The translations under genes were made by a program, and so were the position numbers. Shown here piece after piece: positions 1 to 11,525 of a stretch of 11,525 nucleotides of DNA. Source of the DNA: a virus; UHGV virus genome UHGV-1357462; one strand, 5' to 3'. Position 1 is the stretch's first letter. Every line of letters starts with the position of its first letter. Below the pieces are notes generated by a model. It worked only from the letters and a program-made list of their open reading frames with translations, ran no database searches and was not told the DNA's origin.

Positions 1-786
1 CTGATTGACTGTGCAGCCGAACCGACACAGTTTAACGGACGATCGCTGGTACAGATTGCGCAGGCGCTTGCTGCGCCTTTCGGCATTGAGGTGGTGAACA
101 ACAGTGCGCCGTCGGGTGTTATTCCTGATGTCCAGCCTGATCACGGCGAAACGGTGATTGAGGTGATCAACAAAATACTCGGTCAGCAGCAGGCACTGGC
201 TTACGACGACCCGCACGGCAGGCTGGTGATTGGCGGTATTGGCTCAACGCGGGCACATACCGCGCTGGTACTTGGGGAAAACATCCTTTCCTGTGATACG
301 GAGAAGAGTATCCGGGAGCGGTTTTCAGTTTACCAGGTGGCGGGGCAGCGTGCCGGAAACGACGATGATTTCGGTGAGGCCACCACCACCGCGCTGCGGG
401 CCCGCACAGAGGACGCATTTATTGCCCGTTACCGTCCGATGTATATCAGGCAGACAGGGCAGGCCACGGGGGCAGGCTGTATTGCCCGTGCGGACTTTGA
501 AGCCCGACAACGGGCGGCGCGGACGGATGAAACCACCTATGTGGTGCAGGGATGGCGACAGGGTAACGGTACGCTGTGGCAGCCCAACCAGCGGGTGATT
601 GTCTTCGATCCGGTCTGTGGTTTCGACAATACCGAACTGCTTGTCTCGGAAGTCACGTTTACTCAGGACCAGAACGGCACCCTGACGGAAATCCGTGTCG
701 GCCCACCTGATGCTTATCTGCCTGAACCCGAAGCCCCCGGCGCGCGGAAAAAGAAAAAAGCCAGAGTACAGGAGGACCCGTTCTGA
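1..786 (+). CDS. Phage baseplate hub protein, Mu gp44 (P)-like; 5'-partial
   Basis: Frame 1 has no stop from nt 1 (LIDCAAEPTQFNGRSLVQIAQALAAPFGIE precedes the tracked GTG at 91), so the gene enters from upstream. Its stop overlaps the next start (TGATG, 784-788). It is the first gene of a V / gp46 / J / gp48-like series, matching Mu 44-45-46-47-48 order. The assignment rests on synteny and remembered family appearance, not on alignment. Confidence 0.7.
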   Translation: MIDCAAEPTQFNGRSLVQIAQALAAPFGIEVVNNSAPSGVIPDVQPDHGETVIEVINKILGQQQALAYDDPHGRLVIGGIGSTRAHTALVLGENILSCDTEKSIRERFSVYQVAGQRAGNDDDFGEATTTALRARTEDAFIARYRPMYIRQTGQATGAGCIARADFEARQRAARTDETTYVVQGWRQGNGTLWQPNQRVIVFDPVCGFDNTELLVSEVTFTQDQNGTLTEIRVGPPDAYLPEPEAPGARKKKKARVQEDPF

Positions 787-1334
787 TGAGGACGATTGAA
801 GCCATGCAGCGACAACTCCTCGGCCTGATTGGGCGGGCTGTGGTGAAAAGCATCAGTGCCGCCACGAAATGTCAGACCGTGGATGTGTCCCTGATTGCCG
901 GTGAACCCAAAGCCGGGGTTGAACATCTTGAACCCTACGGTTTTACCGCAAGGGCAAACAGCGGTGCGGAAGCGGTGGTGTTGTTTCCGGATGGCGACCG
1001 TTCTCATGCGGTGGTTGTTACGGTGTCGGACCGGCGCTACCGCCTGAAAGGGCTGCAGACGGGTGAGGTGGCTGTCTATGACGATCAGGGGCAGTCCGTG
1101 ACGCTGACCCGGGAGGGGATCGTGGTGGACGGTGCAGGTAAGACGATCACGTTTCGCAATGCGCCCAGAGCACGTTTTGAAATGGACCTGGAAGTGACCG
1201 GACAGGTGAAAGACCTGTGCGACTCCGGCGGCACCACCATGTCAGCGATGCGGCTTGCCTATAACGGGCATCGTCACAGAGAGAACGGTCAGGGCAGTAA
1301 CACCGATAAACCTGATAAAGCGATGGAGGCATGA
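786..1334 (+). CDS. Baseplate spike / assembly protein V (Mu gp45, P2 gpV-like)
   Basis: 182-aa ORF, translationally coupled on both sides (TGATG upstream, ATGA downstream). The central segment GEVAVYDDQGQSVTLTREGIVVDGAGKTITF...LEVTGQV looks like the gpV spike fold. Its position between the hub and the gp46-like gene fits. Confidence 0.8.
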   Translation: MRTIEAMQRQLLGLIGRAVVKSISAATKCQTVDVSLIAGEPKAGVEHLEPYGFTARANSGAEAVVLFPDGDRSHAVVVTVSDRRYRLKGLQTGEVAVYDDQGQSVTLTREGIVVDGAGKTITFRNAPRARFEMDLEVTGQVKDLCDSGGTTMSAMRLAYNGHRHRENGQGSNTDKPDKAMEA

Positions 1335-1759
1335 TGGAACTGTGGCTGACGGTGAACGGTAAACGCACCTGCGCCAGCTCACCGCTGGATCCGCTGACCC
1401 GCGCCGTGGTGATTTCCCTGTTCACCTGGCGGCGGGCGGAGCCTGATGACAATGCCGACGTCCCGATGGGATGGTGGGGGGATACCTGGCCTGCGGTACA
1501 GAATGACCGTTACGGCTCCCGACTGTGGCTGCTTCAGCGCAGCAAACTGACCAATCAGCTGGTGCAGACGGTAAGGGGGTATATCCGCGAATGCCTGCAA
1601 TGGATGATTGATGACGGCGTGGTGTCCCGTATTGATCTGGATATCCGCCGCACCGGGATTAATGAGCTGGGTAACAGTATCACCCTCTGGCGTCGTGACG
1701 GACCGGTAATGATTTCTTTTGATGATCTGTGGAGTGCGATAACGCATGGCGGACAGTGA
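1331..1759 (+). CDS. Mu gp46-family baseplate protein
   Basis: 142-aa ORF with an ATGA overlap to the V gene. The segment WGDTWP...YGSRLWLLQRSKL resembles the GP46 family as I remember it. It sits directly upstream of the J-like gene, as in Mu. Confidence 0.75.
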   Translation: MMELWLTVNGKRTCASSPLDPLTRAVVISLFTWRRAEPDDNADVPMGWWGDTWPAVQNDRYGSRLWLLQRSKLTNQLVQTVRGYIRECLQWMIDDGVVSRIDLDIRRTGINELGNSITLWRRDGPVMISFDDLWSAITHGGQ

Positions 1760-2804
1760 ATTTCAGCGCCCGACGCTGGCAGAAAATATCAGTATGCTCC
1801 GTAACGATTTATTCGCCAGGCTGGACGTCAGCGACACGCTCCGGCGCATGGATGAAGACGTGCGGGCAAAGGTGTATGCGGCGGCGCTGCATACGGTTTA
1901 CGGGTACATCGATTATCTGGCAATGAACATGCTGCCTGACCTGTGCGATGAGTCCTGGCTGGCGCGACATGCTGCGATGAAACGGTGTCCGCGCAAGGGG
2001 GCCACGGCTGCCAGCGGGTATATGCGCTGGGAAGGTGTCAGCGATGGCCTGAAGGTGACTGCCGGGAGTGTTATTCAGCGCGATGACCTGGTTCAGTACA
2101 CGGCAACTGCCGATGCAACCAGCTCCGGTGGTGTCCTGCGCGTGCCGATCGCCTGCTCAAGTGCAGGCGCGGTCGGTAACGCTGACGACGGTACGTCATT
2201 AATCCTGGTCACGCCGGTTAATGGTCTGCCGTCTTCCGGCGTGGCAGATACCCTGACAGGTGGATTTGATACTGAAGAGCTGGAAACGTGGCGCGCCCGC
2301 GTCATTGAGCGATATTACTGGACGCCTCAGGGCGGGGCTGACGGGGACTATGTCGTCTGGGCTAAAGAAGTGCCCGGCATTACCCGCGCATGGACATACC
2401 GTCACTGGATGGGAACGGGAACTGTCGGTGTGATGATTGCCAGCAGTGACCTGATTAATCCCATTCCGGAAGAATCAACGGAAACGGCGGCAAGACAACA
2501 CATTGAGCCACTGGCCCCGGTGGCAGGCTCTGATTTGTATGTATTCAGGCCGGTGGCACATACGGTGGATTTTCATATCCGCGTGACGCCGGACACACCA
2601 GAAATACGGGCTGCCATTACCGCGGAGTTGCGTTCGTTCCTGCTGCGTGATGGTTATCCGCAGGGAGAACTGAAGGTATCGCGTATCAGTGAGGCGATTT
2701 CCGGTGCGAACGGGGAATACAGCCATCAGTTGCTTGCACCGGTGGACAATATCTCCATTGCGAAAAATGAGCTGGCGGTTCTGGGGACGATTTCATGGAC
2801 GTGA
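1746..2804 (+). CDS. Baseplate J-like protein (Mu gp47 / P2 gpJ / e14 JayE family)
   Basis: 352-aa ORF that overlaps its neighbours by 14 and 10 nt. Size and position match Baseplate_J family wedge proteins, and the composition is GC-rich like the rest of the operon. Confidence 0.85.
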
Positions 2805-3379
2805 CAAACGATGATTACATCCGCCTGTTATCGGCACTGTTGCCGCCCGGTCCTGCATGGTCAGCCAGCGATCCGGCGATTGCCGGTGCGGCACCTTCAT
2901 TAACCCGCGTTCATCAGCGTGCGGATGCTCTGATGCGGGAGCTTGATCCGCGCACCACCACCGAGCTGATAAATCGCTGGGAGCGTCTGTGTGGCCTGCC
3001 GGATGAATGTATTCCCGCAGGGACACAGACCCTTCGCCAGCGTCAGCAACGGCTGGATGCGAAGGTTAACCTGGCGGGTGGCATCAACGAGGATTTTTAT
3101 CTTGCACAGCTTGCTGCCCTGGGCAGACCAGATGCCACCATCACGCGATACGACAAAAGCACGTTCACCTGCTCATCGGCCTGTACTGACGCTGTGAATG
3201 CGCCGGAATGGCGGTATTACTGGCAGGTCAACATGCCAGCCGCCACCAACACCACCTGGATGACATGTGGCGATCCCTGTGATTCCGCGCTGCGTATCTG
3301 GGGCGACACCGTTGTCGAGTGTGTGCTTAACAAACTCTGCCCGTCGCATACCTACGTAATTTTTAAATATCCGGAGTAA
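2795..3379 (+). CDS. YmfQ-like / DUF2313 tail protein (Mu gp48-like)
   Basis: 194-aa ORF. The N-terminal [16 protein letters not shown] is the signature start of YmfQ/Mu gp48-type proteins. It lies between the J-like gene and the tail fibre, as in e14 and Mu. Confidence 0.8.
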
Positions 3380-3382
3380 TCC

Positions 3383-4129
3383 ATGCATCGTATAGACACG
3401 AAAACCGCGCAGAAGGATAAGTTCGGCGCGGGTAAGAACGGTTTTACCCGTGGTAACCCCCAGACAGGCACGCCTGCCACCGATCTGGATGATGACTACT
3501 TTGACATGTTGCAGGAAGAACTCTGCAGCGTGGTGGAGGCATCCGGTGCCAGTCTGGAGAAGGCGCGGCACGACCAACTGCTTACCGCGCTTCGTGCGCT
3601 GCTGTTAAGCCGCAAGAATCCGTTTGGCGATATCAAATCGGATGGCACGGTGAAAACGGCTCTCGAAAACCTTGGTTTGGGAGAAGGTGCTCCAGCTATT
3701 GGCGTTCCGTTCTTCTGGCCGTCCGCTGCAATGCCAAATACTGTAATCGACAGCTGGTCCAGTATGGTGTTTTTGAAGTTCAACGGCGCGAAATTCTCTG
3801 CCACTGATTATCCTGTGCTGGCGAAAGTGTTTCCTTCGCTGGTATTACCTGAAGCCCGCGGTGATTTCATTCGTATCTGGGATGACGGGCGAGGTGCAGA
3901 CGGTGGTCGCGAATTATTAAGCTGGCAGGAAGCTACAAACTTTTCTCAGTTTGCCGGGAATATAGGCGGAGGTGCGGGACACGCAATTAACTTTCATGAT
4001 GGCATCGCCGGAAATCAGCCAGGATTTTCACGATTTAATTTCACCAGTAACTCTGTGGGTGATGGTGTGAATTTTGTTGCTGTCAGACCGCGAAATATTG
4101 CATTTAACTTTCTGGTGAGGGCTAAATAA
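3383..4129 (+). CDS. Short tail fibre protein (constant N-terminus fused to the currently expressed variable C-terminus, Sc+Sv)
   Basis: 248-aa ORF. The N-terminus [46 protein letters not shown] is the conserved start of short fibres in Mu-tail-type prophages. Codons 93-101 (ALENLGLGE) coincide with the left inversion site. DNA becomes visibly AT-richer after that point. The stop overlaps the tfa start (TAATG). Confidence 0.85.
3660..3685. repeat. Left DNA-invertase crossover site (hix/gix/pix-like)
   Basis: ctctcgaaaaccTTggtttgggagaa. It matches the reverse complement of 5465-5490 at 21 of 26 positions, including a perfect 14-bp block (3672-3685 vs 5465-5478) and the same central TT dinucleotide. 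It has the AAACC-NN-GGTTT core typical of Hin/Gin/Cin/Pin sites. Confidence 0.8.
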
Positions 4130-4722
4130 TGAAACCTGTTTTTGATGAAAATGGGCTGGCTACAGTGCCGGGCGATATGCGTTGTTTTTATTATGATGCT
4201 GAAACATCTGAGTATACGGGCTGGTCTGATGAATATATTAATACTGGCGTAAGTATGCCCGCCTGTTCCACTGGTATTGACCCGGGCGAAAACATTCCGG
4301 GGAAAGTGGCAGTATTTACGGGTAAGGGATGGAGCCATGAAGAAGACCATCGCAATGAGACTGTTTACTCAACAGAAAATGGCGCAGCTGTTACAGTGGA
4401 TTATATCGGTGCCATCAAAGACGGTTATGTCACGCTTTCACCGTTAACGCCATACGATAAATGGGATGGTGAGAAATGGGTGACGGATACCGAGGCACAG
4501 CATAGCGCCGCAGTAGACGCGGCAGAAGCACAACGTCAGTCACTGATTGATACTGCAATGGCTTCCATTAGTCTGATTCAACTGAAATTGCAGGCCGGAC
4601 GGAAACTGACGCAGGCAGAAACAACCCGACTTAACGCCGTGCTGGATTACATTGACGCGGTGACGGTAACAGATACCAGCACCGCGCCGGATATCATCTG
4701 GCCTGAACTGCCGGAGGCGTAG
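4129..4722 (+). CDS. Tail fibre assembly protein (Tfa / gpU-like), expressed orientation
   Basis: 197-aa ORF coupled to the fibre gene. The C-terminus LNAVLDYIDAVTVTDTSTAPDIIWPELPEA is the hallmark tail-fibre-assembly chaperone C-terminus. Confidence 0.85.
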   Translation: MKPVFDENGLATVPGDMRCFYYDAETSEYTGWSDEYINTGVSMPACSTGIDPGENIPGKVAVFTGKGWSHEEDHRNETVYSTENGAAVTVDYIGAIKDGYVTLSPLTPYDKWDGEKWVTDTEAQHSAAVDAAEAQRQSLIDTAMASISLIQLKLQAGRKLTQAETTRLNAVLDYIDAVTVTDTSTAPDIIWPELPEA

Positions 4723-5113
4723 GCCATTCAATATCTGGCGCACTGGAAGTATCGACCAGCTCCAGTGCGTCCAGATAATCCAGCCACAAATTATATTGCG
4801 CCAGTTCCTCACCTTTCAGACGACCAATAGCCGCTTTACCAGGCCATTGCCTGCTGTTCATGTGCTCGTTGGCTTCATTAATAAGTTTTCCTTTTTTCAA
4901 CTCTGCCAATGCAATAAGGTTTTCTTTTGATAAAGGTGGTTGCTCTGTCAAAACCGGATATCCCTCCTGATTGCTGACTATTTTCATGCCATTATCCTGA
5001 CCATCCAGTAGTGACAGCCATTCATCCGTGGTTATCTCAACAGCATCTGAAGGTGCTTTATTTAAATCGGTAAAAAAACCATTTTCTTTTTGTGAATAGA
5101 AGTATCTGTCCAT
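4694..5113 (-). CDS. Alternative tail fibre assembly protein (Tfa' / gpU'-like), silent orientation
   Basis: 139-aa ORF. The N-terminus is MDRYFYSQKENGFF and the C-terminus is LWLDYLDALELVDTSSAPDIEWPTPP, the same family hallmark. It is convergent with the other tfa and overlaps it by 29 nt. It lies directly downstream of the Sv' cassette. Confidence 0.8.
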   Translation of the reverse strand: MDRYFYSQKENGFFTDLNKAPSDAVEITTDEWLSLLDGQDNGMKIVSNQEGYPVLTEQPPLSKENLIALAELKKGKLINEANEHMNSRQWPGKAAIGRLKGEELAQYNLWLDYLDALELVDTSSAPDIEWPTPPAVQAR

Positions 5114-5116
5114 TTA

Positions 5117-5464
5117 TCAATCTCCAAAAGCAATCCAGTAAGCAAAAGGATTTATTCCTTGCTCAGTCACAGATGACATCAGGGAAAATTGCGATGGTGA
5201 AACAGGTAATGCTGCAAAACTAACCATTGTTGACACACCTGACCGTGCATTATCGTACGATGCAACAACACAATAATTGGTATTGCTGAAAGATATCGGC
5301 AGGGTGATATTTACAGGTGAGCCTAATGGCCCTGATGCTGATATTCCCATTTGAATGATGGTTCCATCAGGCAATTTTCTCCAGCGATTAGAACTCGGAT
5401 TTCTTTTCCAGGCTGACATATCCGGTATCTGATTTTCTCCTGTGCCTACATCCCTTTTCGCCGC
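5117..5464 (-). CDS. Promoter-less alternative tail-fibre C-terminal cassette (Sv')
   Basis: The minus-strand frame is open through the right crossover site. The peptide ...NVGLGEAAKRDVGTGENQIPDMSAW... shares GLGE with the fibre at the left site. Inversion would therefore fuse fibre codons 1-101 to this cassette. The tracked Met at 5518 has no usable SD. Confidence 0.7.
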   Translation of the reverse strand, partial: AAKRDVGTGENQIPDMSAWKRNPSSNRWRKLPDGTIIQMGISASGPLGSPVNITLPISFSNTNYCVVASYDNARSGVSTMVSFAALPVSPSQFSLMSSVTEQGINPFAYWIAFGD

Positions 5465-5490
5465 TTCTCCCAAACCAACGTTTATGAAAA
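5465..5490. repeat. Right DNA-invertase crossover site (hix/gix/pix-like)
   Basis: ttctcccaaaccAAcgtttatgaaaa. It is the inverted partner of 3660-3685, lies 55 bp upstream of the invertase ATG, and resembles remembered hixL/gix sequences. Confidence 0.8.
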
Positions 5491-5544
5491 TGCAGAAATA
5501 ACGAGCAAATGGCATCATTCCTGCTTTTGTCAGGGAGATCTACC

Positions 5545-5901
5545 ATGCTTATTGGCTATGTACGTGTGTCAACAAATGACCAGAACACAGATCTACAGCG
5601 TAATGCGCTGAACTGTGCAGGATGCGAGCTGATTTTTGAAGACAAGATAAGCGGTACAAAGTCTGAAAGGCCGGGACTGAAAAAACTGCTCAGGACATTA
5701 TCGGAAGGTGACACTCTGGTTGTCTGGAAGCTGGATCGGCTGGGGCGTAGTATGCGGCATCTGGTCATTCTGGTTGAGGAGTTGCGCGAACGTGGCGTTA
5801 ATTTTCGCAGCCTAACGGATGCTATTGATATCAGCACGTCGATGGGGCGTTTTTTCTTTTATGTGATGGGGGCCTTGGCTGAAATTGAGTTTCAGGATTA
5901 A
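5545..5901 (+). pseudogene. pin: Serine DNA invertase, Gin/Pin/Cin/Hin family; 3'-truncated (catalytic domain only)
   Basis: MLIGYVRVSTNDQNTDLQRNAL...VVWKLDRLGRSM...GRFFFYVMGALAEIE is near-identical in pattern to Gin/Pin, with the catalytic Ser in YVRVSTNDQ. An SD (AGGGAG) lies 7 nt before ATG 5545. Family similarity stops at about nt 5889, followed by FQD-stop. Full-length family members are about 180-195 aa and carry a C-terminal HTH. No other frame continues the homology. Confidence 0.85.
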
Positions 5902-6062
5902 GCGATATCGTACTCACCCTTGGTCCCACCTAATAAATCTGAAGAACGGAAGCGCTGCCAGATGATGGTGGTGGCTACAATTATTCACACTCAATCTTCG
6001 GAGCAATCACGTACATCATAATGATGTTAGGAATACGGAGTTTAATGACTGTCCAGTGATGT

Positions 6063-6091
6063 AAAAAGAAACCCCGGCGTAGTAGCCGAGG
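6063..6091 (-). terminator. Rho-independent terminator of the protease gene
   Basis: On the minus strand the sequence reads CCTCGGC-TACTAC-GCCGGGG, a 7-bp stem with one G-U pair, followed by TTTCTTTTT. It lies 24 nt after the stop codon. Confidence 0.7.
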
Positions 6092-6114
6092 TCCTCAATC
6101 AGAAACTACAATAT

Positions 6115-7119
6115 TCACTGAGTGCCTTCATCTGGTTGCTCTGCTGGTAAGGTTCCAGCCTCTTCTTCAGTTTCCGCATGTTTTCCATCGCCTCCCTGGA
6201 CAGGTTCATCCCTTGGCGGTTCTGCTCTTCCTGAATTTTGGTCAGAGATTTCATCTCCTTCCTGAATTCTGCTGTTGTCATGGGAATCTTCCTCTGCGTT
6301 AGTTGTTTCATATTGTTTTTTAGGAGTTAAATCTTTAATCATCGGTTTGTCGAAGATAGAGATTTCGCCTGACGAAATCATTTCACCAAGAACTTCGTAC
6401 AGGTTGGCTGCAAAATCTGTAGGACTCTCAACATGGTTGAATAGTTCCCTCGCCTCTTTACGGTCTATCACAAAACCATGGGCTGGATATCCAGCGATCA
6501 ACTTGCCTAATGAGCTTTCCTTAAGATTTTTCGAGTGACTATTCAAACGTTCCCCATAGGAAAGCGCTATGTTCATTGCTCGCTGATGCTCCCCGAGTTT
6601 GATAGGGTCTATCTGTGAGGCCATCGGCGATATGATTGCTTCAGTAAGCTTAGCAGCAATATCTGCAGACATCTTTGTGCTAATTTGGTTTCTGTACTTT
6701 ATATCAAGTACGTATGATCTAAAGGTCGAAATAGCGCACTCTTTTATTTCATCAATCGCCGTTGCGATAACAAGGCCCGAGCTCAATTCGCCGATCTCAT
6801 CATTTTTCTTAAGTTGGATATCTAGAGGGCCAAGCTCACCCATATCACCAATCACGAGCTTATGAGCGGCGACAGCCATCAATGTTCCAGCACTTTTGCA
6901 AGGGCCAACAACTAGAACGGTGATGTGCTCATAGTTGTGTTGCAAAGCGCGGCCAATTCTATATCCTGCGCTGGGATCACCGCCATAGGTAGCGACGCAA
7001 AAAAGAACATTTTTTTGTAAACCATGGTTAGTTTTTCTTTCTTTAATCGCTTTGGTGATGTCGTGATGACCAGAGCGGTGAACATCGCCTATGTATACGT
7101 AAACGTCTGTATCTTGCAT
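6115..7119 (-). CDS. ClpP/SppA-fold serine protease (SDH-family Clp-fold proteinase-like) with an acidic low-complexity C-terminal tail
   Basis: 334-aa ORF with an SD (AGGGA) 5 nt before the ATG. The core FCVATYGGDPSAGYRIGRAL...ITVLVVGPCKSAGTLMAVAAHKLVIGDMGELGPLDIQL fits the remembered pattern T-x-GG...S-A-G-T...LGP-x-D-x-Q of S49/SDH Clp-fold peptidases. The last ~70 aa are rich in Glu, Asp, Gly, Pro and Gln. The family call comes from motif memory, not from a search. Confidence 0.65.
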   Translation of the reverse strand: MQDTDVYVYIGDVHRSGHHDITKAIKERKTNHGLQKNVLFCVATYGGDPSAGYRIGRALQHNYEHITVLVVGPCKSAGTLMAVAAHKLVIGDMGELGPLDIQLKKNDEIGELSSGLVIATAIDEIKECAISTFRSYVLDIKYRNQISTKMSADIAAKLTEAIISPMASQIDPIKLGEHQRAMNIALSYGERLNSHSKNLKESSLGKLIAGYPAHGFVIDRKEARELFNHVESPTDFAANLYEVLGEMISSGEISIFDKPMIKDLTPKKQYETTNAEEDSHDNSRIQEGDEISDQNSGRAEPPRDEPVQGGDGKHAETEEEAGTLPAEQPDEGTQ

Positions 7120-7320
7120 TTTAATCCCTATGAATAAAATGGTTGAATTTAATGCTGTTCCTCAGCCAAAGCACTGTATCGATAACCAAAATACCTCAGA
7201 TTTGTCGAGAAAACTATCTGGAAAATTAGGCTAACTCTTTGAATCTTCGGAATGCAAAAAAGATAATTTCTCTGGATGGGCGCTAAGTTGATGTGTAAGT
7301 ATGACGGTTAGAACGGTCTC

Positions 7321-7359
7321 GGAAACCGCAGGCACGTCGTATGCAAGAACGTGCTGCGG
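7321..7359 (-). terminator. Weak or leaky hairpin terminator after the dinI-like gene
   Basis: On the minus strand the sequence reads CCGCAGCACGT-(11-nt loop)-ACGTGCCTGCGG, an 11-bp GC-rich stem with one bulge. Only TTTCC follows it, so the U-tract is poor. Confidence 0.35.
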
Positions 7360-7427
7360 CTGGCTGGCGAACTTTCGATAGTGCGAGTATTGAATGATTT
7401 CCAGCCGTTACCGATTTTACGTGTTAA

Positions 7428-7676
7428 TTAGTGAACAAACCACTCGTCAGCAGATTCCCAGGTATCTTTCAGAGTCTCCTGAACAAAAGTTTTTGCAGAA
7501 TCCTTATCTGCGGTGCGTGTAACAGAAAGGCCATCGTTGCTGGTGGCTTTTACGATCACCTCTACATCGTCATAACGTTTACTGATGCGTCGGGTTAATT
7601 CTTCCTTTAACGCATCCACAGCACCGGTTGGCATTTTAGTCATTTTTTCTTTGGCTATGCAGATTTCAATACGCAT
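7428..7676 (-). CDS. dinI: DinI-family protein (DNA-damage-inducible, RecA modulator-like)
   Basis: The 82-aa product [40 protein letters not shown]...[16 protein letters not shown] parallels E. coli DinI (MRIEVTIAK...GAIDAL..EL.RRI...ETWESADDWFV). It has an SD (AGAGGGA) and a LexA-controlled promoter upstream. Confidence 0.9.
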
Positions 7677-7689
7677 AAAAGTCCCTCTA

Positions 7690-7709
7690 CACTGTGTTTG
7701 TATACAGTA
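7690..7709 (-). promoter_or_regulatory. LexA box 1 (SOS operator), between the -10 element and the SD of the dinI-like gene
   Basis: The minus strand reads TACTGTATACAAACACAGTG. This is CTGT-N8-ACAG (7692-7707), close to the consensus TACTGTATATATATACAGTA. Confidence 0.85.
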
Positions 7710-7712
7710 TTA

Positions 7713-7741
7713 TTTTTAACTGTATGAATAAACAGTGTCAA
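7713..7741 (-). promoter_or_regulatory. Sigma-70 promoter of the dinI-like gene
   Basis: On the minus strand there is TTGACA (7741-7736), a 17-nt spacer, then TAAAAA (7718-7713). The spacer is occupied by LexA box 2. Confidence 0.7.
7718..7737 (-). promoter_or_regulatory. LexA box 2 (SOS operator), filling the -35/-10 spacer
   Basis: The plus strand reads aaCTGTatgaataaACAGtg, which is CTGT-N8-ACAG at 7720-7735. Its centre is 28 bp from box 1. Confidence 0.85.
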
Positions 7742-7760
7742 TAGAACAAAGATTGCTGCA

Positions 7761-8178
7761 TGTACAAATGTTCTTTGGCTACAAATACACCTACTGATCA
7801 TGTTCTGCTATGCTCTGATACCTCCAAAATGTACAATCAGCGGCATGAATTTTTCTTTGTACATATGATTGTACATAATTAAAGAGACAACAATTATGAC
7901 AAGCCTTTTGGCCGCAGAGGTAGCGAAAAGAAGAACCTTTGCAATTATTTCTCACCCCAATAATTAAGTCCAAATTAAAGCTCTTTTACTCTTTCAAAAT
8001 CCTTTCAGTTAATTGAAGTTGAGCTATATAACTCATTTAAATACATTTGTTTATGTAGCTTCTTTAATTGAAAACTCTTTCATGTAACTTTAAATCGATC
8101 AGCTTGCTTTCATCAAAAACCTGTACATATGCTTGTACATAATGTACAAAACAGCAGAGGTGTTTTGCGATTTGTACA
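7761..8178. repeat. Two clusters of TGTACA(W)A repeats flanking the prfC-like core; candidate attP arm-type recombinase or RDF binding sites
   Basis: There are eight TGTACA hexamers, at 7761, 7830, 7858, 7870 | 8122, 8134, 8143, 8173, and I found none elsewhere in the window. A 22-bp direct repeat, tgtacatatgAttgtacataat (7858-7879) vs tgtacatatgCttgtacataat (8122-8143), has one mismatch. Confidence 0.6.
7896..7967 (+). other. prfC: Surrogate 5' end of prfC (RF3), 23 codons, containing the probable att core
   Basis: It translates as [23 protein letters not shown]-stop. E. coli PrfC starts [28 protein letters not shown], so similarity runs through ...ISHP (to about nt 7958) and then breaks. 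The fragment lies 220 bp upstream of the integrase on the same strand. Confidence 0.75.
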
Positions 8179-8187
8179 AGGTGAGTA

Positions 8188-9411
8188 ATGGCGCTGTCTG
8201 ATGCGTGGTTGCGTTCAGTCGTTGGAAAGGAACGTGATAAGGTTTTGGTTAAATCCGATCGTGATGGTCTGTCTGTCAGAGTATCACCGAAAGGTCGCGT
8301 AGTGTTCCAATATCGTTATCAATGGGCAGGGAAAGGTGAGCGTCTTGATATCGGAACTTACCCGGCAACTGGATTAAAAGAGGCCAGAGAAGAAGTTATC
8401 CGTCTTCGTGGTGAACTCGAGTCAAACCGTAATCCACGATTGGTCAAGCAGGCTGAAAAACGAAAAGCTACTGAAGCCATGACGGTAGAGTCTGTGATCC
8501 GTGCTTGGTATGAAGCATATTGTGTAAAAAATAAAAAAGGTTCTGAACAGATACTTCGCTCGTTTGAGCTGCACCTGTTCTCTAAAATCGGGAATATCCC
8601 TCACGATGCAGCTACATTGCATGATTGGTTAGAAGTCCTGGAGCCTCTTAGCACTAAGACTCCAGCAATAGCAGACCGATTGCTAATTAACGCAAAGCAG
8701 GCCCATGTCTGGGCGTATAAGAGAAAGCTCATTGAAACTCGCCCGCTGTCGGATATCACGGGTAAAGATATGGATATCCGTAAAGGTCAGAAGAAACGGT
8801 TTCTGACACATGATGAAATTAAAATCCTTTATGCTGCGATCGATGGTTCTCGAATGGTTCCTAAATACCGGGCCTTCATTAAACTATTGCTGCATTTTGG
8901 TTGCCGTAGTTCAGAGCTAATTACCGCCCGGGTGGACGATTTTGATTTCATTAATAAAGTATGGACTGTACCACCAGAACGACATAAGACAGGGGAGATA
9001 ACAGGCGAACCGCTAAAGCGGCCCATTATTGAACCGGTTGAAGAGCTTATAAAGTACGCTATCTCTATGAACAATGGTTCCGATATGCTTTTTACTAAGG
9101 AAGGAAGCAGGGAACCCGTTGGTCGGACATCATTGCAGTCGCTGCCTTACAATTTAATGCAGTACGCATGGCGGTGTTTAGGATATCAATTCCCTCATTG
9201 GTCTCTTCATGACTTGAGACGTACAGCTCGAACAAATTTTTCTGATCTTACTGCGCCTCATATCGCAGAAATTATGCTTGGTCATAAGCTGCCAGGGGTA
9301 TGGCAAGTTTATGATAAGAGCGATTATCTAGAAGAACAGCGTAAAGCTTACCTGGCATGGTGGAAGAGGGTTGAATCGATTGTTAATTGTACTATCTCTG
9401 ATTCAAACTGA
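8188..9411 (+). CDS. int: Tyrosine integrase, P4/SXT-like (DUF4102 N-terminal arm-binding domain plus catalytic domain)
   Basis: 407-aa ORF. The N-terminus LSDAWLRSV...DGLSVRVSPKGRVVFQYRYQWAGKGERLDIGTYPATGLKEAREE is the DUF4102 pattern. Catalytic signatures are present: FGCRSSEL (Arg), WSLHDLRRTART (H-x-x-R) and MLGHK...WQVYDKS (His...Tyr). Confidence 0.9.
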   Translation: MALSDAWLRSVVGKERDKVLVKSDRDGLSVRVSPKGRVVFQYRYQWAGKGERLDIGTYPATGLKEAREEVIRLRGELESNRNPRLVKQAEKRKATEAMTVESVIRAWYEAYCVKNKKGSEQILRSFELHLFSKIGNIPHDAATLHDWLEVLEPLSTKTPAIADRLLINAKQAHVWAYKRKLIETRPLSDITGKDMDIRKGQKKRFLTHDEIKILYAAIDGSRMVPKYRAFIKLLLHFGCRSSELITARVDDFDFINKVWTVPPERHKTGEITGEPLKRPIIEPVEELIKYAISMNNGSDMLFTKEGSREPVGRTSLQSLPYNLMQYAWRCLGYQFPHWSLHDLRRTARTNFSDLTAPHIAEIMLGHKLPGVWQVYDKSDYLEEQRKAYLAWWKRVESIVNCTISDSN

Positions 9412-9697
9412 CGGTTTGTATCACCTGAACATAACCAAATCTCCTAGCACACTTTGAGCGAGATGTGAGCGTTAAGTTTACGCCATTGTGTTGACATAAG
9501 AGGGGGGCGGGTATCGATATCATCACTATCCCTATGCCCCTAAATCGCTCCTGCCATTTGATAAATGCAGATGTTTACCACCAAATGTTTTTGATACTAT
9601 AGGTCGATTCATGATTTACCTAGAAACTTAGTTGTAACGAAAACTTCTTAACGGACACTATCTGGATAAAGTTAGTTTTTTATTTAAGAGGGTTAAC

Positions 9698-10417
9698 ATG
9701 TCAAAGTTAAAAAATGAACCATTAGTAAGGGTATCAGAAGAAGACGGAATAGAAATAAGGAAGATCCAATATCCAGATAATACGATAGAAAGAATTTATA
9801 AGCAGAAAGGTGTAATATTACCACGAATACCTTTAAAAGGCCGCTTTGTAGAACAATATGTGGCCTTACAGTTGCTTGATAAAGATCTTCGGAATGTTAT
9901 TGGTTGGGAGAATATAATAAAAAACATTTGTAATAACATTAATAAAGAACAACACTTTATTTATCCGGATTTAGAAAAGAATCTAATATTAAAGTCTTTA
10001 TTTATATCAAAAGTTGTTACTTACGGTAAGTGTTTTACAGAGGCGAAAGGGCGTCGATTCACATTGCAGAGAAAGCATGTGCCAGAAAAATACAGAGATT
10101 TACATGATTCTATTATGAATGTTAGACATAACTTTGCTGCCCATAAAGGTGAATTCGAATATGATCAATGTGGCTTGGTTTTAATATTGCCGGGGACCAA
10201 GAAGAAAAGGTACTATCATATTTTTTCAGAGCTCAATCAAATAAATTACGGTAATAATGAGGAAGATGATGAACGTTTTTTTATGTTATATGATTCACTG
10301 CGTGAAGTCATTAAAGAAAAACAAGATAAATTAATTGATAAAATATACGCTGAAAAGATTCATACTCAAACAATGGAGTATTGGTTGAGCCGAGCAGGAA
10401 AAGAAACAGAGATTTAA
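9698..10417 (+). CDS. Orphan hypothetical protein, 239 aa, very AT-rich; possible HEPN-like (R-x5-H) abortive-infection or exclusion protein
   Basis: It is an isolated ORF with an SD (AAGAGGG, 9686-9692) and ~280-bp non-coding flanks. I recognise no family. The motif V-R143-H-N-F-A-A-H149 (nt 10124-10144) is present. The composition contrasts strongly with the phage backbone. Confidence 0.6.
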   Translation: MSKLKNEPLVRVSEEDGIEIRKIQYPDNTIERIYKQKGVILPRIPLKGRFVEQYVALQLLDKDLRNVIGWENIIKNICNNINKEQHFIYPDLEKNLILKSLFISKVVTYGKCFTEAKGRRFTLQRKHVPEKYRDLHDSIMNVRHNFAAHKGEFEYDQCGLVLILPGTKKKRYYHIFSELNQINYGNNEEDDERFFMLYDSLREVIKEKQDKLIDKIYAEKIHTQTMEYWLSRAGKETEI

Positions 10418-10613
10418 TTTGTTCAGTATATAAAAGCTAATTTTTAAGGAGTAATTTTAAGATGATTAAAGCTGATTACATTGCGATAGGTACTCTACGA
10501 CTAACTTTTCAACAAGATTAAGGGGGTAATCAATTTTATTTGTATCAATGGTATGACATTTCTTGGTGATAATGTTTTGATCTTATCGATTCATGTCATA
10601 TGGTCATTGGTGA

Positions 10614-10639
10614 CGTCCGCTCTTGGTAAAGAGTGGACG
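10614..10639. other. Stem-loop between the convergent orf239 and xis
   Basis: cgtccgctctt-ggta-aagagtggacg forms an 11-bp stem with one G-U pair. No U-tract follows on either strand, so it is not a canonical intrinsic terminator. Confidence 0.4.
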
Positions 10640-10699
10640 CTCAGATTAGGTTTGGCATCTAAGCATAGATGTGTCAGCTCACATCTAAGCTAATACATA

Positions 10700-10894
10700 T
10701 TACTCAATCACTCCCGCAAATCTGTAAATCTTGTGTGATGCCCATTTATTTGGGCAGGATTTAATATCAGGATCTGGAAAGTCAGGCCTGTATTTCTGAC
10801 CAGTTCTCCTGTTTACGCTGTTCCAGCGAAGAACTGTCGATACTGAAACACCACAGAAATCGGCGACTTGTTTAGTTGTCATTAAGTTGTTCAT
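10700..10894 (-). CDS. xis: AlpA-family excisionase / recombination directionality factor (HTH)
   Basis: The 64-aa product has MTTKQVADFCGVSVSTVLRWNS...FPDPD...NKWASHKIYRF, which fits the AlpA/Xis winged-helix pattern (l..keva.l.gvS.sTv.rW....FP.P....rW). Its start overlaps the upstream stop (TAATG). This RDF type typically partners with P4-like integrases. Confidence 0.8.
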   Translation of the reverse strand: MNNLMTTKQVADFCGVSVSTVLRWNSVNRRTGQKYRPDFPDPDIKSCPNKWASHKIYRFAGVIE

Positions 10895-11525
10895 TACTTC
10901 ACCTCCTGCGGCGGCTCCGGTAGTGGCATCCAGTGGGTTACTTTCGATGCCTGTTCTTCCTCATTGTCAGTAACTGCCCACCATTTGTTTCTCGACCAAT
11001 CGTAATACCCTTCGAAGGTATCGCACTCAGTCCAGCCGTAAGACTTCCCCCAACACCAAACATACTGTTTATCATTCGGCATTCGCTCACTACAGCTTAT
11101 CCAACCACCCGGACTTACCGGAGAGTTGCCAGACAGCGCGTTCTGCAGCCGTTCCAGCTTAACGTATTCCTGAACCCTGTTTCCGTCGCACACCTGAAGC
11201 CATTGCGCAGCCTTTTGCGCATCAGTGTGAAAGGCACAAGTGCGACCGTCATCAAATTGCATTTCGTAGAGGTCAGCAACTTGTTCAAACTGCGTGTGTG
11301 GTGACTTGTAAGTTTGGTTTACAGGTTCGGCACCATGAAGCATGGCGGCGCGGCAGGCGTTCCAGCCTTCATCAAAACCGACTATGCCATTATTTAAAGA
11401 CGGACGAGCATCTGGCACTACCGGCACTGGCTTGGCTATATATAGCGGCTGAACATACCAGCCCTTTGATAACCAACTGTCAGCAATGTTTTTACACCTC
11501 GTTATTGCCGGAATACCTAAGCCAT
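10894..11525 (-). CDS. DUF551-domain early-region protein; the 5' end probably lies beyond the window
   Basis: The C-terminus GGWISCSERMPNDKQYVWCW...WWAVTDNEEEQASKVTHWMPLPEPP is the DUF551 pattern common in lambdoid early-left operons. The tracked start is GTG 11427 without an SD. The frame stays open with no stop up to nt 11525, so the gene is likely 5'-partial. Confidence 0.7.
   Translation of the reverse strand, partial: GLGIPAITRCKNIADSWLSKGWYVQPLYIAKPVPVVPDARPSLNNGIVGFDEGWNACRAAMLHGAEPVNQTYKSPHTQFEQVADLYEMQFDDGRTCAFHTDAQKAAQWLQVCDGNRVQEYVKLERLQNALSGNSPVSPGGWISCSERMPNDKQYVWCWGKSYGWTECDTFEGYYDWSRNKWWAVTDNEEEQASKVTHWMPLPEPPQEVK

Follow-up and report, generated by a model that had tools for sequence, protein, structure and literature searches.

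The question raised by this locus is whether the flagged 4.8 kb between about nt 5890 and nt 10699 is one island of AT-rich cargo whose genes are candidates for conflict functions, as an earlier note had proposed. The window, i.e., the whole stretch of DNA that was analysed, comprises 11,525 nt of the viral genome UHGV-1357462.

The flagged interval is composite and not a single cargo island. It represents the attP-proximal part of a temperate E. coli phage, lambdoid and prfC-integrating, whose tail is of the Mu/e14 type, and contains two accessory slots of unequal quality, one between pin and dinI and one between int and xis; outside the int-xis gap, it is ordinary phage backbone and accessory DNA. 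The overall explanation given below, which blends separate assessments of the slots, of orf239 and of a predicted protease, is considered likely.

Gene Content and Composition of the Interval

All of the genes listed in the earlier note were present, namely a truncated pin, the protease gene, a dinI-like gene, int, orf239, xis and a DUF551 gene. The right boundary was confirmed, with coupled, overlapping minus-strand genes resuming at 10700:

10700-10894, minus strand: excisionase gene (xis; phrog_1553), the conserved right flank of the int-xis slot, 92-100% identical in related loci
10894-11427, minus strand: gene of a DUF551 protein, the stop of which overlaps the xis start; the early-left backbone begins here

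An abrupt change in composition at about nt 5890 was not observed on the left side. The GC content drops from 0.58 to about 0.50 within stf already, at about nt 3700; the inverted tail-fibre segment is at 0.42-0.44, the truncated pin at 0.476 and the protease gene at 0.44. The truly AT-rich parts, where the minima are found, are the attP region (GC 0.327) and the int-xis slot (orf239, GC 0.315). Likewise, gene orientation does not switch at 5890, because it is mixed already upstream owing to the invertible stf/tfa segment. This segment is bounded by a Pin-type inverted repeat that lies outside the flagged interval:

3667-3686: left arm of the Pin-type inverted repeat bounding the invertible stf/tfa segment (20-nt arms, 95% complementary)
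5464-5483: right arm of the repeat, pairing with 3667-3686

The dinI-attP-int Region

The centre of the interval, which had been counted as cargo, is occupied by conserved genes and functional DNA:

7428-7676, minus strand: dinI-like gene (Pfam DinI, PF06183, 70.9 bits)
7692-7735: two LexA-type boxes, CTGT-N8-ACAG (7692-7707 and 7720-7735), overlapping the dinI promoter (7741-7712, minus strand)
7896-7967, plus strand: phage-borne substitute 5' end of prfC (23 codons and stop), holding the attP crossover core ATTATTTCTCACCC at 7944-7957
8188-9411, plus strand: tyrosine integrase gene (int), a core gene with Arm-DNA-bind_3, Phage_int_M and Phage_integrase domains

The presence of a promoter overlapped by two LexA-type boxes (0.11 boxes expected) supports the earlier description of dinI as a separate transcription unit. 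Comparison of 80 IMG/VR prophage loci revealed dinI to be 96-100% identical at the DNA level in every one of them, by which its reading as swappable cargo was rejected. Its assignment to a fixed att-int module was rejected as well, with most of the identical-dinI loci having only about 65 bp upstream in common, and not the att side. dinI is a widely shared, SOS-regulated moron (region 7323-7741).

The attP region extends between dinI and int (approximately 7742-8187), with a crossover core of 14 bp that was placed via three-way alignment of the window, attL (RMDEC465) and attR (APEC E19025). The chromosomal integration site lies between yjjG and prfC. In 80 IMG/VR loci, the integrase showed no less than 97% identity, and attP and int are core. 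The claim that all of the 4.8 kb, including dinI and int, is swappable cargo was, thus, not sustained.

The int-xis Slot

The right-hand accessory slot is delimited by int and xis:

9412-10699: int-xis cargo slot, a very probable defence hotspot (1288 bp here; 1.08-4.2 kb in relatives)

Occupancy was determined in 83 loci in which identity is at least 97% for int and 92-100% for xis, comprising the window, three GenBank/RefSeq records and 79 IMG/VR prophages, the latter being from related E. coli genomes and, thus, not independent samples. The int-xis intervals fell into 19 unrelated sequence clusters (occupant types). Slot boundaries were sharp, with divergence starting no more than 10 bp from the int stop and no more than 37 bp from the xis stop.

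PADLOC analysis of the variants, which the earlier note had suggested as a check for known defence genes, revealed strong matches in 32 of the 83 loci (a raw slot count). These matches were to DSR1 (2683 bits, 16 loci), BovA of the Borvo system (801 bits; eight loci including orf33 of phage cdtI), a dGTPase (351 bits, five loci), AbiU (371 bits), PDC-S59 (245 bits) and PDC-M01A/B (821 and 369 bits). Occupants include a PtuA-like pair, and nuclease-domain proteins were found in six further loci; Pfam added Mrr_cat with HEPN/RES_NTD1, DUF4365, and HNH_2 with dsrm. Ten of the 19 occupant types have no recognisable domain and one occupant is FlxA-like. The occupants of the 83 loci included no toxin, effector or metabolic gene.

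The features expected of a P2/P4-type hotspot, i.e., conserved flanks, mutually exclusive unrelated occupants and known defence genes, were all found at the sequence level. We conclude that the int-xis slot is, with high probability, a defence hotspot, and for this position the earlier idea of a swappable conflict-gene bay flanking att is strongly supported. No description of an int-xis hotspot was returned by a literature search. Homologous recombination within the conserved int and xis genes may exchange the intervening DNA; this would explain the variety of self-contained cargo genes among related prophages.

orf239, the Occupant of the int-xis Slot

In the window, the slot is filled by a single gene:

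9698-10417, plus strand: orf239, occupant of the int-xis slot, with an invariant RHNFAAH motif (R143-x5-H149); GC 0.315

The same gene fills the slot in 16 loci. When the window's own slot genes were compared with PADLOC-DB v2, neither the protease nor orf239 gave a match, and that of dinI was at chance level. Because these cargo genes are without a recognised defence domain, a conflict function is suggested for them by their position. As the slot often holds known defence genes in related prophages, orf239 is a good defence candidate, and we lean slightly towards it being a defence gene.

The orf239 family comprises 925 representatives at 50% clustering, all of about 230-250 aa. Residues D63, Y109, R119, H136, R143 and H149 were invariant across 35 diverse members, with R143 and H149 (Rx4-6H motif) being invariant also in 23 close members. 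Homologues of 38-42% identity are located directly after int at the end of P2/186-like prophages, the hosts being Enterobacter, Citrobacter, Yersinia and one unassigned assembly, and a 55%-identical homologue adjoins an icd fragment (e14-type att).

Neither Pfam (2025 copy) nor PADLOC v2 contains a model for the family; a Pfam search with orf239 and 23 relatives gave no match, and PADLOC on 35 family members gave no consistent match. A PDB profile search yielded chance matches only, comparison of the structure with the BFVD viral predicted structures yielded nothing at E ≤ 0.001, and no promoter was identified for orf239. One distant family member matched HEPN_AbiU2 at E 0.015, with 15 bits against a cutoff of 26.8. 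Homology of orf239 to the DUF4145 protein found in the pin-to-dinI slot of relatives, with which it has an NxAAH motif in common, was rejected (hhalign probability 1.3%).

We infer that orf239 would most likely act as a single-gene, lysogen-expressed anti-phage effector of the abortive-infection type, possibly as a HEPN-like RNase acting via the invariant R-x5-H motif. The wider reading is put forward tentatively, namely that orf239 founds a large family of single-gene anti-phage effectors with an R-x5-H (HEPN-like) site that is integrase-adjacent in at least three temperate-phage lineages. If this reading were true, about ten further occupants of the int-xis slot would be undescribed defence genes and the slot would be a discovery platform.

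The pin-to-dinI Slot

The left-hand slot (5889-7322) follows a broken invertase gene and contains the protease:

5545-5901, plus strand: truncated DNA invertase gene pin (118 aa), which retains only the Resolvase N-terminal domain and has lost the C-terminal HTH
5889-7322: moron cassette composed of the S24 fragment, the terminator and the SDH protease with its upstream region, as delimited by empty-slot relatives
5903-6076, plus strand: frameshifted C-terminal fragment of an S24/LexA-family peptidase gene (pseudogene remnant; RefSeq annotation)
6069-6094, minus strand: intrinsic terminator-like hairpin (10-bp stem, 6 GC pairs) and T-run just past the protease stop codon
6115-7119, minus strand: predicted serine protease of 334 aa (SDH family, ClpP/SppA fold), its C-terminal tail (residues ~271-334) being acidic and disordered

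Homology of the truncated pin to intact pinE prophages stops at window position ~5885-5888, and relatives with an empty slot have the window's sequence in common up to the pin region and then again from 7321/7322. The arrival or a later rearrangement of the protease cassette may have deleted the 3' end of pin. The junction of truncated pin, S24 fragment and protease was found in 21 of 5426 complete E. coli genomes. Assignment of the S24 fragment rests on the RefSeq annotation of the APEC E19025 prophage end (100% identical) and of UTME-7. The fragment was rejected as the remnant of a repressor normally preceding the protease, since it is convergent with the protease gene and located downstream of it; moreover, nothing in the window was matched by tblastn when the cI-like S24 protein of a related locus served as query.

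The slot was surveyed in 48 prophage ends with a YmfQ tail (Mu-type tail). They were anchored on dinI, as the phage-type prfC 5' end in viral contigs gave only three loci. Of these ends, 26 were empty, nine encoded a DUF4145 protein, three the SDH protease, two an acyltransferase and one an IpaH-like protein, with the other seven carrying alternative tail-fibre or short unassigned ORFs. In lambda-tail relatives, the position was occupied by DRT UG17 with SLATT (527 and 189 bits) or by cdtABC with cif and an nleH-like gene. O-acyltransferases, an alpha/beta hydrolase and IS elements are also found in the slot and its lambda-tail equivalents, and the IpaH-like protein is of the LRR-NEL type.

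Known defence genes were recovered at this position as DRT UG17 with SLATT only, and in lambda-tail relatives only, the contents otherwise being mixed. The notion of a swappable conflict-gene bay applies here to a moderate degree, the slot being variable and often empty. It is most likely a general moron slot in which defence, virulence and surface-modification genes are mixed and which is weaker than the int-xis slot.

These contents bear on the alternative that both slots are generic lysogenic-conversion (moron) sites, with orf239 and the protease serving host physiology, virulence or prophage regulation. Such a reading would accommodate the cdtABC, cif, nleH-like and IpaH-like LRR-NEL genes, the O-acyltransferases, the hydrolase and the IS elements of the pin-to-dinI position, as well as the FlxA-like occupant and the ten domain-less occupant types of the int-xis slot. 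It is, however, opposed by the strong matches to known or candidate defence proteins in the int-xis slot, by the nuclease domains in six more of its loci and by the lack of toxin, effector or metabolic genes there, and is regarded as improbable. For the int-xis slot, the defence-hotspot reading is retained.

The SDH-Family Protease

The terminator at 6094-6069 supports the earlier view of the protease gene as a separate transcription unit. The protein matched phrog_21683 and scored 27 bits against Pfam PF01972, below the cutoff of 31.3, while a precomputed PF01972 match exists for most of its homologues. An AF2 model (pLDDT 79) retrieved SppA (4kwb/3rst, E 6.5e-6) in Foldseek, the matches to SppA (4kwb, 3rst) and ClpP having E ≤ 1e-5 and a probability of 1.0. 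On the basis of these matches, the protease is assigned to the SDH family with a predicted ClpP/SppA fold. The putative catalytic residues K75, S76, H214 and D219 were invariant in a sequence alignment of 40 homologues.

Homologues from E. coli, Klebsiella, Serratia and Bartonella are encoded directly downstream of, and co-directional with, a prophage repressor. This repressor is an HTH protein, with an HTH+S24 architecture except in the Klebsiella Rac-like prophages; in E. coli, the gene order is cI-SDH-N-cIII-kil-gam. A repressor-like ORF was located immediately upstream in four of the five closest GTDB matches and 637 bp upstream in the fifth. Across the wider family, an S24 ORF is present in the 1.5 kb upstream in only about 13 of 76 members. 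Exclusion genes, such as rexAB in lambda, are classically located after cI.

Because its closest relatives directly follow the CI repressor, which is the position of rexAB in lambda, the protease probably is a lysogeny-expressed accessory function, either in exclusion/defence or in repressor- or SOS-linked regulation. Its designation as a defence gene is possible, yet doubtful. The CI-linked SDH protease could constitute a new repressor-coupled exclusion or induction-control system; no description of the SDH protease in phage biology, and none of the RefSeq accessions, was found in a literature search.

A purely regulatory role, in which the protease controls the lysis-lysogeny switch of the prophage or the SOS response, e.g., by degrading repressor fragments or RecA-related factors, and does not act in defence, would agree with the consistent pairing of its closest subfamily with a prophage repressor, mostly HTH+S24, and with the S24 remnant and the SOS-controlled dinI adjoining it in the window. 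Against this stand the exclusion-gene position after cI, the paucity of upstream S24 ORFs in the wider family and the finding that the window's protease is full-length and 99-100% conserved though uncoupled from any intact repressor. This role is considered rather unlikely, and a lysogeny-expressed accessory function is preferred.

The truncated pin, the frameshifted S24 gene and the rarity of the pin-S24-SDH junction might also indicate decaying junk at a degenerating prophage end, with the ORFs being relics without selected function. This is very improbable given that the protease and orf239 are both full-length and, taken jointly, 97-100% conserved in many genomes, that their homologues occur across genera with invariant putative catalytic residues, that int, xis and attP are intact and that the int-orf239-xis module is also present in the sequenced phage 2H10. 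Both cargo families recur at defined genomic positions, and accessory functions expressed in the lysogen remain the preferred reading for orf239 and the protease.

Significance and Comparison with Known Systems

The P2 and P4 defence hotspots are productive sources of new immune systems. The int-xis slot would be a comparable, sharply bounded hotspot in a very common E. coli lambdoid prophage family and is an easily anchored place for mining defence candidates. Its int/att module is the same as in cdt-, Stx1- and Stx2c-converting phages, which links anti-phage cargo to medically relevant converting phages. In addition, two widespread uncharacterised families are nominated, the orf239 family and the CI-linked SDH protease.

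In comparison with HEPN abortive-infection and toxin proteins (AbiU2, MNT-HEPN), orf239 is without a significant HEPN-family profile match and carries two additions, a beta unit at the N-terminus and an inserted beta-hairpin; a partner antitoxin gene is absent. The protease resembles lambda rexAB in that its close homologues fill the cI-to-N interval, co-directional with cI, whereas the window's protease is located in the pin-to-dinI slot and has no sequence relation to RexA or RexB.

Prophage e14 carries mcrA after pinE and lit beside intE, both being anti-phage genes. The e14-like arrangement proposed in the earlier note holds for the tail-end module, i.e., ymfQ, stf, tfa, the invertible segment and pin (truncated here), followed by cargo and then att. 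In both elements, att lies inside a host gene, the lost end of which is replaced by the phage, this gene being icd in e14 and prfC here. The second cargo, however, is not at the lit position. In e14, ymfD, ymfE and lit form a second cargo block that separates att(icd) from intE, with intE and xisE being direct neighbours of the same orientation. In the window, att directly adjoins int, and this cargo is enclosed by int and xis, which are convergent. The two elements also use different att sites and integrases of different families.

Phages 2H10, cdtI and Ayreon and prfC-integrating Stx prophages have the dinI-attP-int...xis-DUF551 module in common with the window at 95-97% identity, but possess lambda-type tails. 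Phage 2H10 carries the same int-orf239-xis module, whereas in cdtI and Ayreon the int-xis slot contains Borvo (BovA), and cdtI additionally has cdtABC, cif and an nleH-like gene upstream of dinI.

The P2/P4 hotspots (Rousset et al. 2022, PMC9122126) resemble the int-xis slot in their fixed position between conserved phage genes and in their many mutually exclusive, AT-rich, self-contained cargoes, comprising known defence genes together with unknown genes. The int-xis slot differs from them in its lambdoid, prfC-integrating lineage and in its position between convergent int and xis.

Gene order and composition

The window is organised as follows.

91-3379: Mu/e14-type baseplate genes
3383-4129: stf
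4129-4722: tfa
4694-5518: inverted alternative tfa and stf C-terminus
5545-5901: truncated invertase gene (pin)
6115-7119, minus strand: 334-aa protease (SDH protease)
7428-7676, minus strand: dinI
8188-9411, plus strand: int
9698-10417, plus strand: orf239
10700-10894, minus strand: xis
10894-11427, minus strand: DUF551 gene, overlapping xis
3667-3686 and 5464-5483: 20-nt inverted repeat bounding the invertible tail-fibre segment

The gene list of the earlier note holds, as does the switch back to coupled backbone genes that it placed at 10700, where xis and the DUF551 gene overlap on the minus strand. The abrupt change it placed at 5890 was not borne out: GC content falls in steps from the baseplate genes (0.58) through stf (0.51) to the inverted segment (0.42-0.44), measures 0.476 over the truncated pin and 0.44 over the protease gene, and is lowest around attP (0.327) and in orf239 (0.315); since the invertible segment occupies 3667-5483, mixed gene orientation starts well upstream. 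Both 20-nt crossover repeats are intact, and the invertase is cut near codon 118; without an invertase supplied in trans, the host-range switch is probably locked. The 248-aa stf product carries the RefSeq label 'integrase' in APEC E19025.

Attachment site and phage identity

The right end of the APEC E19025 prophage matches window 3300-7950 at 100% and continues directly into prfC, and left prophage ends from many genomes begin to match at about 7916 and continue rightward, beside yjjG and a 5′ prfC fragment. Three-way alignment placed the crossover at ATTATTTCTCACCC (7944-7957), with its core in a 23-codon stretch of phage DNA that substitutes for the prfC 5′ end (7896-7967). On this att evidence, the window comes from a lambdoid phage that integrates at prfC, in its circular or attP form or as a tandem junction. 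Phage 2H10 matches the dinI-attP-int-orf239-xis-DUF551 block at 97% identity; minus orf239, the block is 95% identical to phage cdtI, Ayreon, and Stx1a- and Stx2c-converting prophages.

The attP holds a diverged copy of prfC codons 1-21 with its own upstream region (window 7896-7967; L003, strain RMDEC465, 5978-6046; L004, 12597 onwards). After integration, the functional prfC is predicted to lie under phage DNA adjoining the LexA-controlled dinI promoter, and the host prfC promoter with the native 5′ fragment to face int and any plus-strand cargo. A group II intron reverse transcriptase/maturase near the RMDEC465 prophage attL (L003 1390-3078), between a tRNA-Leu cluster and rsmC, bears no relation to the cargo slots.

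The int-xis interval

Eighty IMG/VR prophage loci with an integrase at least 97% identical were fetched, xis was located in each, and the interval was measured from int stop to xis stop (9412-10699 in the window). It ranged from 1.08 to 4.2 kb and held 19 unrelated clusters over 83 loci; these come from related, non-independent E. coli genomes, and the occupant counts carry no matched background control.

Identified occupants of the int-xis interval (loci; PADLOC score or Pfam)
DSR1: 16 loci; PADLOC, 2683 bits
BovA (Borvo), including cdtI orf33: 8 loci; PADLOC, 801 bits
dGTPase: 5 loci; PADLOC, 351 bits
AbiU: 1 locus; PADLOC, 371 bits
PDC-S59: 1 locus; PADLOC, 245 bits
PDC-M01A/B (PtuA-like ATPase and partner): 1 locus; PADLOC, 821 and 369 bits
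Mrr_cat and HEPN/RES_NTD1 pair: Pfam
DUF4365 protein: 3 loci; Pfam
HNH_2 and dsrm protein: 2 loci; Pfam

Ten occupant types, including orf239 (16 loci), were left without identification by PADLOC and Pfam over the 83 loci. Besides orf239, eight occupants without a Pfam or PADLOC assignment (L022 1782-3032, L036 1760-2575, L019 1412-1960, L039 1591-2583, L033 1399-2949, L069 1395-2525, L064 1322-2356 and L052 1522-3428, in the fetched loci) are candidate new defence genes. Several of these eight are predicted to be membrane proteins; one comprises three genes, among them one for a STAS-like DUF4325 protein.

Across loci with different occupants, similarity stops no more than 10 bp from the int stop and 37 bp from the xis stop, as expected if homologous recombination in the flanking genes drives exchange; occupants may thus be swapped by recombination inside conserved int and xis. 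Cargo lies on either strand, so each gene presumably has its own promoter.

orf239

No informative Pfam match was obtained for orf239 and 22 close relatives; orf239 had no PADLOC match and a single PHROG, itself without annotation, and its family gave no consistent PADLOC match. A word-indexed search returned 25 clusters in Enterobacterales, and an exhaustive profile search 925 representatives, all single-domain and of about 230-250 aa. Among 35 diverse members D63, Y109, R119, H136, R143 and H149 are invariant, RHNFAAH constituting an R-x5-H motif. The model (pLDDT 87) comprises an N-terminal beta unit and a four-helix bundle with a beta-hairpin insertion. Sequence evidence for HEPN consists of one sub-threshold HEPN_AbiU2 match in a distant member, and in hhalign against the DUF4145 family the motif alone aligns.

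Homologues of 38-42% identity directly follow int at the ends of P2/186-like prophages in Enterobacter, Citrobacter, Yersinia and one unassigned assembly, and a 55%-identical homologue adjoins an icd fragment, which is an e14-type att; from these positions, orf239 is a cargo that recurs next to int or att in three lineages of temperate phage. Its slot is elsewhere filled by DSR1, Borvo, dGTPase or AbiU. We lean slightly towards a predicted function in defence or abortive infection, for which HEPN-type RNase chemistry is a plausible but unproven mechanism.

The pin/tfa-dinI interval

dinI is 96-100% identical across 80 loci, but in most of them the shared upstream sequence extends for only some 65 bp and does not include the att side; dinI is thus a widely shared SOS moron, and was rejected as swappable cargo in the window's lineage. 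Two perfect CTGT-N8-ACAG LexA-type boxes (7692-7707 and 7720-7735; 0.11 expected by chance) overlap its TTGACA-18-AAAAAT promoter.

A census anchored on dinI covered 48 loci with a YmfQ-type tail.

Occupants of the pin/tfa-dinI interval (of 48 loci)
Empty, dinI directly abutting pin or tfa: 26
DUF4145 protein: 9
SDH protease: 3
Acyltransferase_3: 2
IpaH-like LRR-NEL protein: 1
Alternative tail-fibre or short unassigned ORFs: 7

Lambda-tail phages that share this dinI carry instead a DRT UG17 reverse transcriptase and SLATT, or else cdtABC, cif with an nleH-like gene, or IS elements. With such mixed occupants, we conclude that this interval is a general moron site, defence being one theme only. 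The swappable defence bays of the earlier note are thus retained for the int-xis interval, whose genes are not conserved backbone and include known defence genes (DSR1, Borvo, dGTPase, AbiU); the pin/tfa-dinI interval is variable, but mostly empty and of virulence, surface and defence content.

The DRT UG17 protein (456 aa) and its SLATT_5 2TM partner (183 aa) adjoin dinI in L126, L139, L124, L154 and L138. The commonest occupant, a 231-aa zinc-ribbon/DUF4145 protein encoded downstream of dinI (L133, L096 and eight others), often beside a pin truncated to 154 aa, had no match in a PADLOC search.

In the window, the interval holds a cassette (5889-7322) of a frameshifted S24-peptidase fragment and the SDH protease, whose junction with truncated pin is rare, being present in just 21 of the 5426 complete E. 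coli genomes. In E. coli UTME-7 (L173), the same cassette lies downstream of intact pin, in a prophage integrated at dusA and also containing IS903B, between two copies of the 124-bp dinI 3′ flank (window 7321-7444; L173 5840-5963 and about 8353-8476; L106). The intact pin and duplicated flank indicate that the cassette entered by recombination-driven insertion and that the window's lineage then lost the pin 3′ end in a secondary deletion.

The protease is predicted to adopt a ClpP/SppA fold (AF2 pLDDT 79; Foldseek to SppA, E 6.5e-6), with K75, S76, H214 and D219 invariant and an acidic, predicted disordered tail of about 60 residues; its gene has its own terminator, and PADLOC gave no match. 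Its nearest relatives (42-77% identity; E. coli, Klebsiella, Serratia, Bartonella) directly follow the prophage repressor in the same direction, this being an HTH+S24 protein except in Klebsiella Rac-like prophages. In E. coli the genes run cI-SDH-N-cIII-kil-gam, which puts the protease in the rexAB position of lambda. A repressor-like ORF is immediately upstream in four of the five closest GTDB matches and 637 bp upstream in the fifth; in the wider family, an S24 ORF lies within 1.5 kb upstream in only about 13 of 76 loci. The repressor-adjacent position argues for a lysogeny-expressed accessory role, either in exclusion/defence or in repressor/SOS regulation. Pairing with a CI-like HTH repressor, mostly HTH+S24, was seen in Escherichia, Klebsiella, Serratia, Rahnella, Proteus, Bartonella and an Aeromonadaceae MAG (L186 4130-6005; L188; L189/L190; L168-L172; L191; L193-L197).

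Comparison with known systems

Prophage morons and defence hotspots are already established, notably in P2 and P4 (PMC9122126). In the literature searched, of which coverage was incomplete, no description was found of the int-xis hotspot, the CI-linked SDH protease or orf239. The int-xis slot is useful mainly because new defence genes can be sought there at a well-anchored position, in a prophage family whose members include cdt- and Stx-converting phages.

In MG1655, e14 runs icd, ymfD, ymfE, lit and the adjacent, co-directional intE-xisE, and later ymfQ, stfP, tfaP, tfaE, stfE, pinE, mcrA and icdC. Of the e14-like arrangement proposed earlier, the pin-cargo-att half stands, being common to both elements; the int-cargo-xis half fails, since in e14 lit sits between att and int, and there is no int-xis gap such as the window has. 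The two also differ in integrase family and target gene.
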